A DNA stretch of 4,711 nt from a virus (lineage: Duplodnaviria; Heunggongvirae; Uroviricota; Caudoviricetes). The translations under genes were made by a program, and so were the position numbers. Each line of letters starts with the position of its first letter. Positions within the stretch are counted from its first letter, which is position 1. The DNA lies in the IMG/VR virus record IMGVR_UViG_2547132270_000004, positions 1-4,711 of that record; one strand, written 5' to 3'. The notes beneath the pieces are model-generated. The model searched no databases. It had not been told where the DNA came from and saw only the letters and a program-made list of their open reading frames with translations. This document shows, piece after piece, positions 1 through 4,711 of the stretch.

Positions 1-19
1 GCATCACAAAATTCACTTT

Positions 20-61
20 AAAAAGGGCGGCAGAGCAGTCACGGAGTAAAACTGATACCGC
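20..61 (-). terminator. Rho-independent terminator forming the 3' end of DicF
   Basis: On the minus strand GGCGG (61-57) pairs with CCGCC (29-25) around an imperfect extended stem, followed directly by a TTTTT run (24-20). Confidence 0.55.
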
Positions 62-77
62 CAAACGCCACCAGAAA
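25..77 (-). ncRNA. dicF: DicF small regulatory RNA (ftsZ-targeting sRNA of the dic division-inhibition operon)
   Basis: Minus strand reads TTTCTGGTGGCGTTTGGCGGTATCAGTTTTACTCCGTGACTGCTCTGCCGCCC followed by TTTTT. This is 53 nt and matches my recollection of E. coli K-12 DicF at all but one position (G for A at the 10th nt). It lies at the distal end of the minus-strand operon downstream of the DicA-like repressor, as in Qin. Identity is from memory, not a search. Confidence 0.8.
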
Positions 78-413
78 ATTGATAACAGAGGGCGTTGTAG
101 CGGGGTTGTCACTTAAGCGTATGGTCAACCTGACAACCCGGTGTCCTCAACGGGGAAGGAATAACCCCGCCATACTTACCGCCGCGCCATTTCGCGGAGT
201 GCCACAACCGGAAGCGCACGGTCGAATTAAATTTAACGACACCGTACAGAGAGACCAATTTCGCCGTGTGCTTTCGCGTTATGCCCTGGCTTTTCAGGGA
301 TATATCCTTTCAGTAAACTGTCAGTACCGGATTCTTATCCGTGTCCGGCGCACGACCACACGTGACAGCGTGTTGGTCTCCATTTTTAACCCAGAACCTC
401 AATGGAGGATAAA

Positions 414-623
414 ATGCCAAACAAAAAAAGAAATCCGCTTATTGAAAAACAGATTGAATGCCTTGTAAATCAACTCAGGCAATCAGGGTTATTAAAAACT
501 CATTCAGAGTTGAGGCTCACAGAATCAGCATTCGACGATAAATTAAATAATGTCCTTTATAATGGCATTATTGATTTTAATCGTTCTGTTGGTCGCCGCG
601 GCCCTGCTGGTGTTTCCTTATAA
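414..623 (+). CDS. Hypothetical small protein (69 aa), convergent with the minus-strand operon
   Basis: ATG at 414 has a perfect GGAGG (404-408) 5 nt upstream; the ORF-track start at 402 has no RBS. Open frame to TAA 621-623. No recognisable domain. The C-terminal third overlaps an alternative-frame hydrophobic ORF, so the true coding frame is uncertain. Confidence 0.4.
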   Translation: MPNKKRNPLIEKQIECLVNQLRQSGLLKTHSELRLTESAFDDKLNNVLYNGIIDFNRSVGRRGPAGVSL

Positions 624-1262
624 TTACCAGTCAATCCAGAGCGGACCGTGTTCAGCGTAAATATAACTGTACACATCCAGATTATATTTGTGGTCTGTTA
701 AGAACAGGCCGCAAATACATGCCGAAGCTTCAAGGGCAGCGGCTCTGTTACTGAATAACCATGTAGCAACATTCCAGCGTTTTTCTGCATCCCAGTCTTT
801 CTCAAGGCCTGATACCATGAAGAAACCGTTAGTGTTGCCATCAAATAATTCTGTTTCCAGATTTTTAAGCAATGCCTGATGGACTCTTGCCAGGTATTCC
901 GCCGGAATTTTGCCACGAATTCTGATGAGATTGTCATAAACAAACATGTTCCCCGCATATGGCGATTTTTCTTTCTTGTTTTTTAAACCAGCATCATGAG
1001 CAAACTGATCAATTTCTTCTTCCGTTGGTTTCGTATTGATGTTTTGCGCTGTCGTTTCTGCAATTTTATTTGCCACACTCTCTGAGTCGTGTTTATTTAT
1101 AGACGCACAGAAATACAATCCGGTAAACGCATCGCGCACATTACGAGCTATATTATCAGTGTCTTTTTTCGTTACCGATTCCAATGCAAGTTCGTTCAGA
1201 CGATGACGAAGTGTATGTGCTGCAATCTCCTGGATTGAAGTAGGTAAATCTTTAAATTCCAT
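624..1262 (-). CDS. Hypothetical protein (212 aa), unrecognised cargo gene in the repressor-controlled operon
   Basis: Long minus-strand ORF (216 codons in the track). Preferred start is the internal ATG at 1260-1262, preceded by GAGG with a 6-nt spacer (minus strand TGATGAGGTTGACGATGG). The alternative ATG at 1272-1274 overlaps the upstream stop (TGATG). Predicted soluble and acidic, with no motif I recognise. Confidence 0.75.
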   Translation of the reverse strand: MEFKDLPTSIQEIAAHTLRHRLNELALESVTKKDTDNIARNVRDAFTGLYFCASINKHDSESVANKIAETTAQNINTKPTEEEIDQFAHDAGLKNKKEKSPYAGNMFVYDNLIRIRGKIPAEYLARVHQALLKNLETELFDGNTNGFFMVSGLEKDWDAEKRWNVATWLFSNRAAALEASACICGLFLTDHKYNLDVYSYIYAEHGPLWIDW

Positions 1263-1273
1263 CGTCAACCTCA

Positions 1274-1426
1274 TCAGTCAGAGTTTCTTGCTAACCAGCG
1301 ATGCGCGCCAGCTTCGGTTTTAAACGTTTTACTTTTGGTATACGTCATCGCGGTGAACGTGCCGTCCTGGTTGGGAAACACGTCGTACACCAGAGATTCG
1401 TTGTTGCCAAGATCGATAGTATCCAT
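1274..1426 (-). CDS. ydfA: Small protein (50 aa), YdfA-like (DUF1391-type) directly downstream of the dicA-like repressor
   Basis: The track ORF 1274..1519 has no RBS at its first ATG. The internal ATG at 1424-1426 is preceded by GGGGAAATGAGG (SD GAGG, 5-nt spacer). Size (50 aa) and position match ydfA (51 aa) of Qin and ydaF of Rac. The family assignment rests on synteny and size, not on verified sequence identity. Confidence 0.6.
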   Translation of the reverse strand: MDTIDLGNNESLVYDVFPNQDGTFTAMTYTKSKTFKTEAGAHRWLARNSD

Positions 1427-1503
1427 GCTGACCTCATTTCCCCTTAACGCCGGGGTAGCGGAACTGTTTGCTGAGAACACCGTGCGGTGTCTTGATGAAT
1501 GAT

Positions 1504-1555
1504 AATTTAGTTTTCTCATGTTAATTGGTCAAGTATTTTTGATGAGAAAACTCAA
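1504..1555 (-). promoter_or_regulatory. Putative sigma70 promoter of the early-left (dicB-type) operon with two flanking operator-like sites
   Basis: Minus strand: -35 TTGACC (1532-1527), 17-nt spacer, -10 TAAATT (1509-1504). Operator-like TGAGAAAACTCA at 1543-1554 sits just upstream of the -35. An 11/12 copy TGAGAAAACTAA (minus strand, 1518-1507) overlaps the spacer and -10. Confidence 0.45.
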
Positions 1556-1560
1556 TATTT

Positions 1561-1599
1561 AATGCAAAATAAAGCCAATACATTGAAATGTAAGGCTTT
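1561..1599 (-). terminator. Weak AT-rich hairpin plus T-tract downstream of the repressor gene (possible attenuator or terminator)
   Basis: Minus strand AAAGCC (1599-1594) and GGCTTT (1576-1571) form a stem, with an inner ACATT/AATGT pairing, followed by ATTTTGCATT (1570-1561). The stem is AT-rich, so termination efficiency is doubtful. Confidence 0.25.
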
Positions 1600-1616
1600 A
1601 AAATTTGTGAAGGGAG

Positions 1617-2024
1617 TTATTGATGTTTGTTACGTTTGCGAGCTTCTAGTAGCTCGGTGAATAGGCGATTAAAATTCTCAACGCGGGCACGGAGTTCGCT
1701 GATTTGTGCTTGCTGCTCTGATTTTGGAAGTGCGCGATACAATCGCAACATCTCCAACTCATCTTCCGATAAGTCTAAGGCGCTGTTGAGTGCAACTGGT
1801 GGATCTGGTGTTTTATCCTCGTCACCAAACAGTATCCAAGTTGGTGAACATTGCAATACCTCAGCCAGGCGATGCAAATTTTGCCCACGCGGGGCTGTAT
1901 GGTCGCTTTCCCATAGTGAAATTGATGAGCCAGATACGCCAGCAGCTTTGCTTAAATCGTTTTGACTTAAACCAACCTGTTTGCGTCTTTCTCTAATTCG
2001 TTGACCTAAAGTTTTCTCGTTCAT
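1617..2024 (-). CDS. dicA: DicA-like HTH (XRE/Cro-C1 family) prophage repressor, 135 aa
   Basis: N-terminal HTH (QRIRERRKQVGLSQNDLSKAAGVSGSSISLWES) and the motif LQCSPTWILFGDEDK, which I associate with DicA/RacR-family repressors. Start chosen at the ATG at 2022-2024 (MNEKTLGQ...), giving 135 aa as in K-12 DicA. The track start at 2075 would add 17 residues and leave no room for the divergent promoter. Confidence 0.85.
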   Translation of the reverse strand: MNEKTLGQRIRERRKQVGLSQNDLSKAAGVSGSSISLWESDHTAPRGQNLHRLAEVLQCSPTWILFGDEDKTPDPPVALNSALDLSEDELEMLRLYRALPKSEQQAQISELRARVENFNRLFTELLEARKRNKHQ

Positions 2025-2045
2025 ATTTAGATATCTTAATAACCC

Positions 2046-2088
2046 TTGACTTGAGATTCCTTGAGTGATTACCATTGAGAAAACTCAA
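2046..2088 (+). promoter_or_regulatory. Putative promoter of the cro-like gene with an overlapping inverted-repeat operator
   Basis: -35 TTGACT (2046-2051), 18-nt spacer, -10 TACCAT (2070-2075). The 14-bp inverted repeat TTGAG-AAAA-CTCAA (2075-2088) overlaps the -10 and the predicted +1. Extra TTGAG half-sites occur at 2051-2055 and 2061-2065. SD GGAGGGG (2093-2099) precedes the ATG at 2102. Confidence 0.45.
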
Positions 2089-2101
2089 TTTTGGAGGGGC
2101 G

Positions 2102-2329
2102 ATGTTTAAATCAGACGTAATTAATTTTTATGGGACGAAAGCCAAAGTAGCGAAAGCTGCTGGTGTTGATCCATCTGCTGTTTCTCAATGGGGGGCACTG
2201 GTTCCTGAAGGTCGCGCGATGCGCCTGCAAGAGGCATCCGGCGGGGAACTTCAGTACGACCCCAAAGTTTATGACGAATATCGTAAGGCAAAGCGGGCGG
2301 GGCGGCTGAACAATGAAAATCACCCCTGA
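2102..2329 (+). CDS. dicC: Cro-like HTH regulator (DicC/YdaS family), 75 aa
   Basis: Divergent from the repressor gene. ATG at 2102 follows a strong SD GGAGGGG; the track start at 2075 is a TTG lying inside the operator. HTH-like segment GTKAKVAKAAGVDPSAVSQW. Size matches DicC (76 aa). Confidence 0.8.
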   Translation: MFKSDVINFYGTKAKVAKAAGVDPSAVSQWGALVPEGRAMRLQEASGGELQYDPKVYDEYRKAKRAGRLNNENHP

Positions 2330-2834
2330 ACAGGTTTGTGAGGCTCTGGATGCCTGGGTATGCCGACCAGGAATGACACAGGAGCAGGCGACGATATTAA
2401 TCACGGAAGCATTCTGGGCTCTGAAAGAACGCCCGAACATCGATGTTCAACGCGTCACGTTTGATGATGGCGCGGTTGATCAACGGGCGCTGGGCGTCAA
2501 CCGGGTGAAGATATTCGAACGCTGGAAAGCTATTGATACCAGGGATAAGCGGGAAAAATTCACGGCGCTGATTCCGGCAATTATGGAGGCTATCCGGATA
2601 AGTGATTTCAGGTTGTATCGTGAAATTACTGACGGAAAAAGCATTACATACATGATCGCCGGGTTAAACAAAGAATATGGCGACGTGGTGGAGTCAGGTC
2701 TGCTTTTTGCAGATCCGGCTGTTGTGGATCGTGAAACCGACGAACTTATAGAAAAAGCCATTGCTTTCAAGCGTGCGTATCGTCAGCAATATCAACAAAA
2801 AGCCGGATGGAATTATGAGTCTTCTGTTTGCTGA
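2313..2834 (+). CDS. cII-position regulatory protein (173 aa), possibly YdaT-like CII functional equivalent
   Basis: ORF overlaps the cro-like gene by 17 nt (2313-2329) and sits where lambdoid phages carry cII. It shows no resemblance to lambda CII itself. The YdaT-family assignment is by synteny and vague recollection only. Confidence 0.75.
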   Translation: MKITPEQVCEALDAWVCRPGMTQEQATILITEAFWALKERPNIDVQRVTFDDGAVDQRALGVNRVKIFERWKAIDTRDKREKFTALIPAIMEAIRISDFRLYREITDGKSITYMIAGLNKEYGDVVESGLLFADPAVVDRETDELIEKAIAFKRAYRQQYQQKAGWNYESSVC

Positions 2835-3780
2835 ACGCCCACTGGTTATTAACACGCAGCTGGCGATGAAAATTGGCCTGAATGAAGCCATTGTACTGCA
2901 GCAGCTGCATTACTGGTTGAGAGATACTAATTCCGGCATGGAATGTAACGGGGTTCGCTGGATTTATAACACAACAGAACAATGGCTGGAACAGTTCCCG
3001 TTCTGGTCAGAGTCAACGTTAAAACGCGCATTTGCAAGTCTGAAAACGCTGGGGCTTTTGCGTTGCGAAAAGCTCAACAAATCAAAGCGTGACATGACTA
3101 ATTTTTACACGATTAATTACGAGAGTGAGCTTTTAGATGGTGGCAAAGTGAGCGAATCCATCAGGTCAAAATGCGCCGCTCCATCAGGTCAAAATGACAC
3201 GATGGAAGAGGTCAAAATGGCACGCTCCATTGGTTCAAAACGACCCAATGTCATCGGGTCAAAATGGCCTGATGATCTTACAGAGAATACAACAGAGAAT
3301 ACAACAGAGAATAAAAACACTTCTCGTCCGGAAGCTTCGCAACCGGACCCGCAGACGGCTGAACAGGATTTTTTAATCCGACACCCTGATGCGGTTGTGT
3401 TCAGTGCGAAAAAACGCCAGTGGGGAAGTCAGGAAGATTTGGCGTGCGCACAGTGGATCTGGGGACGAATCGTGAGTCTTTACGAGCAGGCGGCCAGCGA
3501 TGATGGCGAGATCACGAGACCGAAAGAACCCAACTGGACAGCATGGGCCAATGACGTGCGCACAATGCGGATGCTGGATGGCAGAACTCACAGACAAATT
3601 TGCGAAATGTTTGGGCGGGTACAGCGGGATCCATTCTGGGTAAAAAACATCATGAGTCCGTCAAAGCTCCGCGAAAAATGGGACGAACTGGTCATCCGCC
3701 TGGGGCGTTCATCTGTACAGCGTTGTGTGAATCATATTTCTGAACCGGACACCGAAATTCCGCCGGGGTTCAGGGGGTAA
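2815..3780 (+). CDS. Phage replication initiator / replisome organizer (lambda O-like), 321 aa, with internal iterons
   Basis: ATG at 2815 is chosen over the track's TTG at 2761; it overlaps the upstream gene's stop by 20 nt. The N-terminal domain has the look of a replisome-organizer DNA-binding domain. The central low-complexity linker is encoded by the iteron array and tandem repeats. It lies immediately upstream of the DnaC-like loader. Confidence 0.85.
   Translation: MSLLFAERPLVINTQLAMKIGLNEAIVLQQLHYWLRDTNSGMECNGVRWIYNTTEQWLEQFPFWSESTLKRAFASLKTLGLLRCEKLNKSKRDMTNFYTINYESELLDGGKVSESIRSKCAAPSGQNDTMEEVKMARSIGSKRPNVIGSKWPDDLTENTTENTTENKNTSRPEASQPDPQTAEQDFLIRHPDAVVFSAKKRQWGSQEDLACAQWIWGRIVSLYEQAASDDGEITRPKEPNWTAWANDVRTMRMLDGRTHRQICEMFGRVQRDPFWVKNIMSPSKLREKWDELVIRLGRSSVQRCVNHISEPDTEIPPGFRG
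3157..3266. repeat. Iteron array (five direct repeats, about 23-bp phasing): putative phage origin of replication inside the initiator gene
   Basis: Core GGTCAAAATG occurs at 3164-3173, 3187-3196, 3210-3219 and 3257-3266, with a variant GGTTCAAAACG at 3232-3242. Extended consensus is about TCCATCAGGTCAAAATG. The arrangement is analogous to ori-lambda within gene O. Confidence 0.6.
3280..3315. repeat. 12-bp tandem repeat ACAGAGAATACA, 2.9 copies, A-rich, encoding TENTTENTTEN
   Basis: Two perfect copies (3280-3291, 3292-3303) and an 11/12 third copy (3304-3315), immediately downstream of the iterons. Confidence 0.7.
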
Positions 3781-3786
3781 CGAACC

Positions 3787-4533
3787 ATGAAAAATATTGC
3801 GACAGGCGGCGTTCTGGAACGTATCCGCAGACTGACCCCGCCACATGTAACCGCCCCATTCAGAACGGTAGCGGAGTGGCGCGAGTGGCAGCTTGCTGAA
3901 GGCCAGAAGCGTAGCGAGGAGATCAACCGCCTGAATCGCCAGTTGCGGGTGGAAAAAATTCTGAATCGCTCAGGCATCCAGCCGTTGCACCGTAAATGCT
4001 CGTTTGCGAATTACCATGTACAGAACGACGGCCAGCGATACGCGTTAAGTCAGGCGAAATCCATCGCTGATGAACTGATGGCCGGATGCACAAATTTCGC
4101 GTTCAGCGGAAAACCTGGTACCGGAAAAAACCATCTGGCGGCGGCTATCGGAAATCGCCTGCTGAAAGACGGCCAGACAGTGATAGTGGTTACTGTGGCT
4201 GATGTTATGAGTGCCCTGCACGCCAGCTATGACGACGGGCAGTCAGGCGAAAAATTTTTGCGGGAACTGTGCGAAGTGGATCTGCTGGTTCTTGATGAAA
4301 TTGGCATTCAGCGTGAGACGAAAAACGAGCAGGTGGTGCTGCATCAGATTGTTGATCGCCGGACAGCATCGATGCGCAGTATGGGGATGCTGACAAACCT
4401 GAACTATGAGGCCATGAAAACGTTGCTCGGCGAGAGGATTATGGATCGCATGACCATGAACGGTGGGCGCTGGGTGACTTTTAACTGGGAAAGCTGGCGC
4501 CAGAATGTCGTCCAGCCAGGAATCACGAAGTAA
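3787..4533 (+). CDS. dnaC: DnaC-family AAA+ replicative helicase loader (prophage DnaC paralog), 248 aa
   Basis: Walker [18 protein letters not shown] and Walker [10 protein letters not shown]. Collinear similarity to E. coli DnaC along the whole length (MKN..., [33 protein letters not shown]). RBS GGGGG at 3772-3776. Confidence 0.95.
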
Positions 4534-4555
4534 TTTTTACCAGGAGAAAAATTTA

Positions 4556-4711
4556 ATGGAGACTGTTTTTGACGCACTGAAAGCAATGGGAAAAGCCACA
4601 TCCATAGAACTTGCGGCGCGACTTGATGTCAGTCGTGAAGAAGTGCTTAACGAACTATGGGAACTGAAAAAGGCTGGCTTTGTTGATAAAAGCGCGTACA
4701 CCTGGCGTGTG
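4556..4711 (+). CDS. Partial small ORF (5' part, 52 codons, runs off the window), possible winged-helix protein
   Basis: ATG at 4556 with GGAG (4543-4546) upstream; open to the window end. Translation begins [52 protein letters not shown]. It occupies the slot after the helicase-loader gene. Confidence 0.5.

Follow-up and report, generated by a model that had tools for sequence, protein, structure and literature searches.

What does a prophage keep between its DicA-type repressor and the DicF small RNA (sRNA), and what is the role of the protein encoded there? The question is raised by a 4,711-nt stretch of viral DNA (Caudoviricetes; positions 1 to 4,711 of IMG/VR record IMGVR_UViG_2547132270_000004, hereafter the window), the minus strand of which carries, in order, a DicA-like repressor gene, a sigma-70-like site, a YdfA-like gene, a gene for a 212-aa protein, approximately 550 nt of further sequence and DicF. 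As judged from sequence comparisons, the 212-aa protein is very probably an accessory, early-expressed binder of two domains, the C-terminal one of which forms an exchangeable cassette with a small gene that lies tail-to-tail with it. This modular cassette architecture is kept in two genera, Escherichia and Salmonella, and the cassette is previously undescribed in the literature found. About one in nine complete E. coli genomes carry the gene pair, with O157:H7 and other enterohaemorrhagic E. coli (EHEC) strains among the carriers. The pair sits directly upstream of DicF and DicB, regulators of division and metabolism.

The 212-aa gene and its convergent partner

The features of the two genes are listed below.

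624 to 1262, minus strand: 212-aa gene (start ATG at 1262, stop TAA at 626-624; PHROG 2151, named 'Ybl81' in some sources)
1269 to 1272, minus strand: Shine-Dalgarno (SD) sequence GAGG of the 212-aa gene, just past the ydfA stop
1274 to 1426, minus strand: YdfA-like gene, first of the operon (DUF1391, Pfam PF07151; E-value: 2e-27)
1089 to 1262, minus strand: N-module, codons 1-58 (MEFKDLP..GLY), predicted helical
972 to 1088, minus strand: acidic linker, codons 59-97, partly helical (isoelectric point [pI] 4.8)
627 to 971, minus strand: C-module, codons 98-212, compact beta-beta-alpha-beta-beta-alpha-beta (core IRIxGxIPxxYL...FDGxxNGxF...AxWxF)
414 to 623, plus strand: gene for a 69-aa basic protein (PHROG 4274, phrog_4274 E-value: 1e-51; stop TAA at 621-623; pI 9.7)
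404 to 408, plus strand: strong SD sequence GGAGG of the 69-aa gene
291 to 319, plus strand: candidate promoter of the 69-aa gene (TTTTCA-17-TAAACT)
about 327 to 347, plus strand: candidate 5' hairpin of the 69-aa gene

The 212-aa gene is a genuine, conserved prophage gene. Its position on the minus strand after a ydfA-like gene, as proposed by a first-pass annotation that used the sequence alone, is confirmed by the list of open reading frames (ORFs) and by reading of the reverse complement, and the SD sequence GAGG proposed there is found at 1272-1269, 6 nt ahead of the ATG at 1262. The same annotation held that the start 'overlaps or abuts' the ydfA stop. The two genes do abut, with a separation of 11 nt, but do not overlap: an in-frame ATG at 1274, which is overlapped by the ydfA stop TGA at 1276-1274 (TGATG) and would yield 216 aa, is skipped by the homologues and by RefSeq. 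ATG 1262 (MEFKDLP...) is the start common to every homologue, and the RefSeq start is identical (212 aa). A spacing of 11 nt makes translational coupling of the gene to ydfA plausible. The protein has a pI of 5.5 and is hydrophilic (grand average of hydropathy -0.44), in agreement with the soluble acidic product described. The gene is not unrecognized, as had been claimed: RefSeq already holds the protein as hypothetical protein WP_000394546.1, and profile searching recovers a full-length match to PHROG 2151 (phrog_2151 E-value: 8.7e-145, residues 1-212 on profile positions 1-212 of 212). Members of this family show 64-98% identity to the protein over the full length. They fall into approximately 150 clusters at 90% identity, nearly all from Escherichia with a few from Salmonella, and are named only 'hypothetical protein' or 'Ybl81'.

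The earlier statement that the protein has no placeable motif is upheld. Pfam, NCBIfam and PADLOC (PADLOC-DB v2) scans assign no family to either the 212-aa or the 69-aa protein (PADLOC up to an E-value of 1), and the PHROGs matched by the two proteins are of unknown function. PDB sequence searches with the single 212-aa protein and with its profile give no match, no helix-turn-helix (HTH) family is found in this protein at E-values up to 1, and a match to a housekeeping phage protein was looked for and none was obtained. Literature searches for ybl81, WP_000394546.1, DUF1391 and ydfA/B/C found no study of the 212-aa gene or the cassette; a division-inhibitor screen in the literature used a strain that bore the K-12-type interval.

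The 212-aa protein is built of two predicted modules, of which the C-terminal one is exchangeable; this is a new observation. For PHROGs 1363, 9419, 6937 and 33007, the match is confined to aa 1-50/75. When 1.84 billion representatives were searched exhaustively with a profile, 51 proteins (50% identity clusters) were recovered, approximately 40 of which share only the N-terminal 35-93 positions and have unrelated C-termini of 42-200 aa. By this comparison, the N-terminal helical module is a hallmark of a large set of lambdoid early-operon proteins. An origin of this N-terminus from K-12 YdfB or YdfC was considered and rejected, both proteins having been read and found to be without similarity. 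The C-module has a much narrower range, its relatives among the same representatives being limited to the Salmonella prophage proteins P0140 and P0152. These begin with MFNVKRNG..., continue with or without an HTH_3 domain and end with the C-module, which is 26-30% identical between E. coli and Salmonella. Distant homology of the E. coli and Salmonella N-termini was also tried and rejected (hhalign probability 1.5%). The HTH-bearing Salmonella relatives match the CII-like regulator PHROG 4836, and the Salmonella C-module genes come right after int, the repressor and Cox.

The AlphaFold2 (AF2) model of the family alignment has a helical N-half and an alpha/beta C-half and is of modest confidence (predicted local distance difference test [pLDDT] 66). 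The N-module is modelled with helices at residues 8-24 and 32-55, and pLDDT is 48-65 over aa 51-100. The C-half alone, modelled from an E. coli and Salmonella alignment, reaches a pLDDT of 77 and a predicted template modelling score of 0.71, with core values >90. The profile and structure searches suggested in the first-pass annotation thus yielded a family, PHROG 2151, but no informative fold: only generic alpha/beta-sandwich and helical-bundle likeness is seen. The ACT, ArgR C-terminal and SUI1 (eIF1, YciH) sandwiches resemble the C-module with generic-fold scores and 9-17% identity and have no motif in common with it, and homology is not claimed.

The 69-aa gene is convergent with the 212-aa gene, and the two stops meet (TAA|TTA) with zero intergenic bases. 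With the stops abutting and no terminator detected in between, collision of the two transcription units cannot be avoided. In Salmonella, a convergent 64-69-aa gene and the 3' end of the C-module gene have 11 nt in common. The small proteins from E. coli and Salmonella are homologous (44-51% identity; QL..SGLLKT.S.L....F..KL......II.F....R.PAGV.L) and basic (pI 9.6-9.9), while the C-module is acidic. The tail-to-tail pair follows ydfA in E. coli and Cox in Salmonella. The 5' untranslated region (UTR) of the small gene, including the candidate hairpin, is kept across cassette types and in Salmonella, where TGnTATA is aligned to the candidate promoter. A LexA box at this promoter was considered and dropped, as no CTGT-N8-ACAG was seen by eye at 280-420. 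Just past the start codon of the 69-aa gene is an A7 homopolymer (423-429, codons 4-6). The three IMG/VR copies read at this site (L140, L141 and L146) all have A6, such that the rest of the small ORF is out of frame with the ATG, and five further copies that match from residue 4 only may share A6. These A6 copies could be sequencing errors in old draft assemblies or could mark a slippage-prone on/off site.

The two genes are closely associated. The C-module adjoins the small gene tail-to-tail in 74 of 74 IMG/VR loci encoding the small protein, and among 5.8 billion proteins both families occur in Escherichia and Salmonella only. In complete E. coli genomes, the small gene is found at 744 places and the C-module at 739, with both present in 594 of 600 genomes. 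The 212-aa gene and its flanks are present at ≥80% coverage in 559 of 5,426 complete E. coli genomes, and the C-terminal half alone is present in 592 (up to four copies per genome). In every case, the prophage order is int-xis-exonuclease-DUF1482-dicB-(dicF)-...-ydfA-repressor-cro-ydaT-O-P/DnaC. Because the C-module and the small gene stay together through deep divergence and replacement of the N-terminus, a functional link between them is suggested.

Both genes are under purifying selection. The ratio of nonsynonymous to synonymous substitution rates (dN/dS, Nei-Gojobori) of the 212-aa gene against diverged copies is 0.23-0.38 overall, and the ORF is therefore not a chance one. The ratio is 0.16-0.24 for codons 96-212 and 0.4-0.7 for codons 1-95 (N-module and linker), a mosaic region; that of the 69-aa gene is 0.21-0.25. 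Disruption or poor conservation of the ORF, the other outcome that could have told against it, is not what is seen: the ORF is conserved and mostly intact, and both genes are intact in 45 of 56 IMG/VR copies. Decay of a non-functional ORF in cryptic prophages is accordingly a very improbable account of the gene. The prophages concerned are mostly defective and a few copies are frameshifted (L031 and L071), but the low dN/dS of the C-module, its confidently predicted fold, the number of intact pairs and its retention between genera all contradict decay.

A variable slot in the early-left operon

In other prophages, the same N-module, small-gene SD sequence and small-gene 5' UTR bracket other pairs of genes. 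The alternative cassettes are listed below (forward protein, convergent partner).

E. coli: 112/119 aa, 64-aa partner
E. coli: 186 aa, 80-aa zinc-ribbon protein
PPompW and Evi: 135 aa, unrelated 77-aa protein
Salmonella slot: 163 aa, 88 aa
Salmonella slot: 214 aa, 60 aa
Salmonella slot: 200 aa, approximately 70 aa

The variable block begins where the N-module ends and stops at the start codon of the small gene; the flanks are constant. A translated 'MEDKM' at the small genes corresponds to the SD region. The 3' overlaps of the paired genes range from 0 to 44 nt. The forward proteins are acidic (pI 5.2-5.5), and the partners are basic (pI 8.8-9.9) for three of the four E. coli cassette types, as they are for the Salmonella homologues of the 69-aa type. 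Because other C-termini bring other convergent small genes between constant flanks, the early-operon slot is a recombination hotspot of alternative two-gene cassettes. When the 186-aa cassette type was sought in other contexts, only near-identical copies were found. A search of the contigs of the representative genomes with the 69-aa protein gave no match, and the cassette is apparently absent there.

A survey of the dicA-to-dicF interval across dic-type prophages, which the first-pass annotation had recommended, shows that the content of the slot differs from prophage to prophage. The interval in K-12 Qin holds only ydfA, ydfB and ydfC, as stated there. In a sample of K-12-like ydfA loci, the ydfA-dicF interval is composed of optional units, namely ydfB, ydfC and an N-module gene that may or may not have a partner. 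N-module homologues are also found without ydfA (in PPompW, Evi and Shiga toxin [Stx] phages). The earlier picture of a single unit coupled to ydfA is superseded by these homologues, the two modules and the convergent gene at 414-623. Accessory or conflict genes are typically located in slots of this type, which makes the 212-aa gene a testable candidate for a function in phage-phage or phage-host conflict. The earlier view of this gene as the best candidate for an effector or defence gene holds as far as the variable, accessory-type slot is concerned; as for effector, defence or anti-defence activity, PADLOC is empty and the folds are generic.

Two unrelated convergent small proteins (L168 3518-3784, minus strand, and the 64-aa partner of the 112-aa cassette, e.g. 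in L067) match Anti-adapt_IraP below the cut-off (E-values: 0.007 and 0.06; 14-17 bits versus a cut-off of 23). These matches were not used and are probably noise from helical composition, though one family is hit twice.

A similar arrangement, though not a homologous one, is seen in the variable hotspots at which P2-like phages and P4-like satellites carry anti-phage systems (PMC9122126). These likewise have conserved flanks, alternative cassettes and a fixed position in a temperate phage genome. They differ in belonging to another phage group and another position, and the early-operon cassettes consist of a fused domain and a 60-88-aa gene with no PADLOC match.

Control of the operon and proposed roles of the pair

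The sites likely to govern expression of the 212-aa gene are listed below.

1617 to 2027, minus strand: DicA-like HTH repressor gene (HTH_3; E-value: 1e-16)
1504 to 1532, minus strand: promoter-like site of the early-left (dicB-type) operon (TTGACC-17-TAAATT; sigma-70 consensus scan)
1505 to 1518, minus strand: candidate operator, 14-nt motif TGAGAAAACTCAAT
1543 to 1556, plus strand: candidate operator, same motif
2076 to 2089, plus strand: candidate operator, same motif
25 to 76, minus strand: DicF sRNA gene, downstream in the same operon (Rfam RF00039; 76.4 bits, gathering score 48)

The 212-aa gene lies between the DicA-type repressor and promoter on one side and DicF on the other, all on the same strand, and dicB is found further on in matching genomes. 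The repressor-controlled early-left operon of the first-pass annotation is thus recognizable, with its repressor, promoter-like site, operator-like motifs and DicF in place. Sigma-70-like sites in the region are not above chance, and the choice of 1532..1504 is based on its position and the flanking operator-like motifs. Two copies of TGAGAAAACTCAAT are inverted about this site, flanking or overlapping it, and the third is between the repressor and a Cro-like gene. Three matches are present where 0.06 are expected, a number reached in 0 of 200 shuffles. The three copies are candidate operators of the DicA-like repressor. As the motif is present at both the promoter-like site and the repressor/cro intergenic region, it is a reasonable inference that the early-left operon is controlled by the same repressor. 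Transcription of the 212-aa gene within this operon and its repression by the DicA-like protein are suggested by the arrangement and by K-12 biology (PMC5069750).

The preferred reading of the pair, with a probability of roughly 0.3, is that it comprises a small effector expressed in the lysogen and a cognate binder expressed on induction. In the repressed prophage, a promoter of the small gene itself would drive synthesis of the small basic protein, which would play an accessory effector role, for instance in exclusion or in modulation of the host. The 212-aa protein would be a cytoplasmic, non-enzymatic protein of two modules that is made only once the DicA-type repressor releases the early-left operon. 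After derepression, it would bind and neutralize the cognate small protein through its C-module, and convergent read-through from the early operon would silence the small gene. Cassettes would be swapped by recombination between two constant flanks, the N-module and, at the far end, the small-gene 5' UTR with the dicF leader. Counted in favour of this reading are the modularity, the retention of the pair in different contexts, the hotspot, the acidic forward proteins with mostly basic partners, the purifying selection on both genes and the abutting stops with no terminator found in between. Were the cassettes cognate effector/neutralizer pairs, they would constitute a compact new prophage conflict system and explain the variability of the slot; if the proteins are inert, this is an ordinary orphan accessory gene.

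In lambda and P22, SieB and Esc provide a precedent: an exclusion gene with its own promoter lies inside the pL operon, and the phage makes an antidote, Esc, that is an internal product of sieB. The present cassette is comparable as an accessory gene within an early-left operon, with proposed expression in the lysogen and a proposed cognate phage-encoded neutralizer. This is an analogy of how the system may work only: no relation of sequence or fold was found, with no SieB-annotated hit in Pfam or PHROG, and the candidate neutralizer in the cassette is a separate, convergent gene.

Several observations weigh against the effector/binder reading. PADLOC has no family for either protein, the candidate promoter of the 69-aa gene is a weak consensus match (8 of 12, below the scan threshold), and co-occurrence of abutting genes without a conserved junction is expected from linkage alone. 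The partner can also be missing: N-module proteins of Stx phages have no convergent partner, and forms with the tail ...WIDWFKG account for 17 of 110 full-length clusters and for 185 of approximately 1,690 member sequences (~15% and 11%, respectively). At the WIDWFKG loci inspected (L082 and L257-L262), the small gene is mostly deleted and the forward gene is intact in seven of seven, such that the forward protein may act on its own. Two features of these loci nevertheless favour the reading. An intact forward gene without the small gene fits an 'orphan antidote' and argues against the opposite polarity, in which the forward protein would be toxic and the small one its antidote. The C-module of the WIDWFKG lineage has a dN/dS of 0.46-0.58, from few substitutions, which hints at relaxed constraint. 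The converse is seen in L071 and L031, where the forward gene is frameshifted; the small gene is fully intact in L071 and matched over residues 4-69 in L031. At L257-L262 and L082, the SD sequence and 5' UTR of the deleted small gene remain, and another convergent gene (170-211 aa; coiled-coil and C-terminal zinc ribbon) is present ~165 nt downstream, with a Phage_ASH/pRha gene between it and dicB. In L257-L259, a gene for a PaaA2-like antitoxin comes after the repressor, upstream of ydfA.

The persistence of the forward gene at these loci, where it is both intact and diversified, is what would be expected if the 212-aa protein were a stand-alone early effector, active for example in host takeover, anti-defence or exclusion, with an N-module that docks it to a common host or phage partner, a C-module that sets the target and a small gene that is an unrelated moron. 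This explanation, tentative but no less probable than the preferred reading, also suits an acidic protein that is made early, the host-directed action of the neighbouring DicF and DicB, and the N-module proteins with variable C-termini that lack a convergent gene in Stx and other phages; adjacency alone would then account for co-occurrence. It does not readily explain why each of the cassette types examined in dic-type and Salmonella prophages comes with a small partner of its own, or why the C-module and the small gene remain together at 26-51% protein identity although the N-terminus and the upstream gene have been replaced, and the protein matches no known effector, anti-defence or defence family. 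Less probable is a regulatory module of the lysis-lysogeny or early-operon circuit, in which the C-module would be an oligomerization or ligand/partner-sensing domain (ACT/ArgR-C-like) and the small gene would tune the toxic dicF-dicB part by transcriptional interference. The convergent, abutting genes with no terminator found between them would permit such interference, and the Salmonella relatives that have HTH_3 between the N-terminus and the C-module match PHROG 4836 and, following Cox, occupy the position of 186 cII. These relatives resemble CII-like regulators in their XRE-type HTH and in their place after Cox, but an HTH is absent from the 212-aa protein and from half of the Salmonella relatives, and the N-module is unrelated to the Salmonella N-terminus. 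Moreover, exchange among unrelated C-termini, or absence as in K-12 Qin, is not what a core regulator would be expected to show, and protein-level purifying selection on the small ORF means that it is not merely a transcription unit.

A classical toxin-antitoxin addiction pair that stabilizes the prophage is improbable, even though a larger acidic protein is paired with a small basic one and the equivalent region of CP-933P holds such a system, paaR2-paaA2-parE2 (PMC8630535). That system is likewise an accessory module of two genes and lies in the immunity region between the repressor and kil/dicB, and in L257 PaaA2 adjoins ydfA and a 211-aa homologue of the present protein. However, the CP-933P module runs in the same direction as the repressor gene, is transcribed together with it and has a toxin of known family (PMC8630535), whereas the 212-aa and 69-aa genes are convergent, with abutting stops, and match no toxin or antitoxin family in Pfam, NCBIfam or PADLOC. 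Each gene can also be disrupted or deleted while the other is intact (L082 and L257-L262; L071), and with one partner in a repressed operon the pair would not be co-expressed in lysogens, which argues against addiction.

A broader extension of the effector/binder reading, and a doubtful one, is that temperate enterobacterial phages possess a hypervariable early-operon hotspot in which an N-terminal adaptor is joined to swappable C-domains, each with a convergent 60-90-aa protein expressed from a constant promoter. These would be cognate effector/antidote sets, a new class of exclusion or conflict system with self-immunity, diversified by the co-resident dic-type prophages of EHEC-like strains.

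The dicF leader and rightward neighbours

One further conserved feature lies between the cassette and dicF.

85 to 250, minus strand: conserved RNA leader in the cassette-dicF spacer, operon sense (~130-nt element, RNAalifold)

This leader is nearly invariant in E. coli dic-type prophages, including the ydfC-dicF spacer of K-12 Qin, and is 83-91% identical across K-12 Qin, other cassette types and Salmonella. In Salmonella prophages it is 81-87% identical, while the flanking proteins there are only 26-51% identical. The structure predicted by RNAalifold has a closing stem of 8 bp, a CGCG hairpin and, around a variable loop, a further hairpin of 9-12 bp. Many changes are one-sided changes to G-U, which allow pairing on the minus strand only, and there are no compensatory double changes. 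The leader is probably structured as RNA. An Rfam scan assigns it to no family; it may be a processing or antitermination element of a long dicF precursor and may bear on the transcription or processing of that RNA.

Rightward of the repressor (2102-2834) are a P22_Cro-type gene and then a YdaT-type gene, the Pfam family names of which say 'toxins'. The CP-933P study argues that genes of these two types are analogues of Cro and CII (PMC8630535). Further along, the O-like replication gene contains five tandem 23-nt repeats (CATCAGGTCAAAATG...) at 3159-3274, followed by three 12-nt repeats (ACAGAGAATACA) at 3280-3315. These look like the iterons of a lambda-type origin inside the initiator gene.

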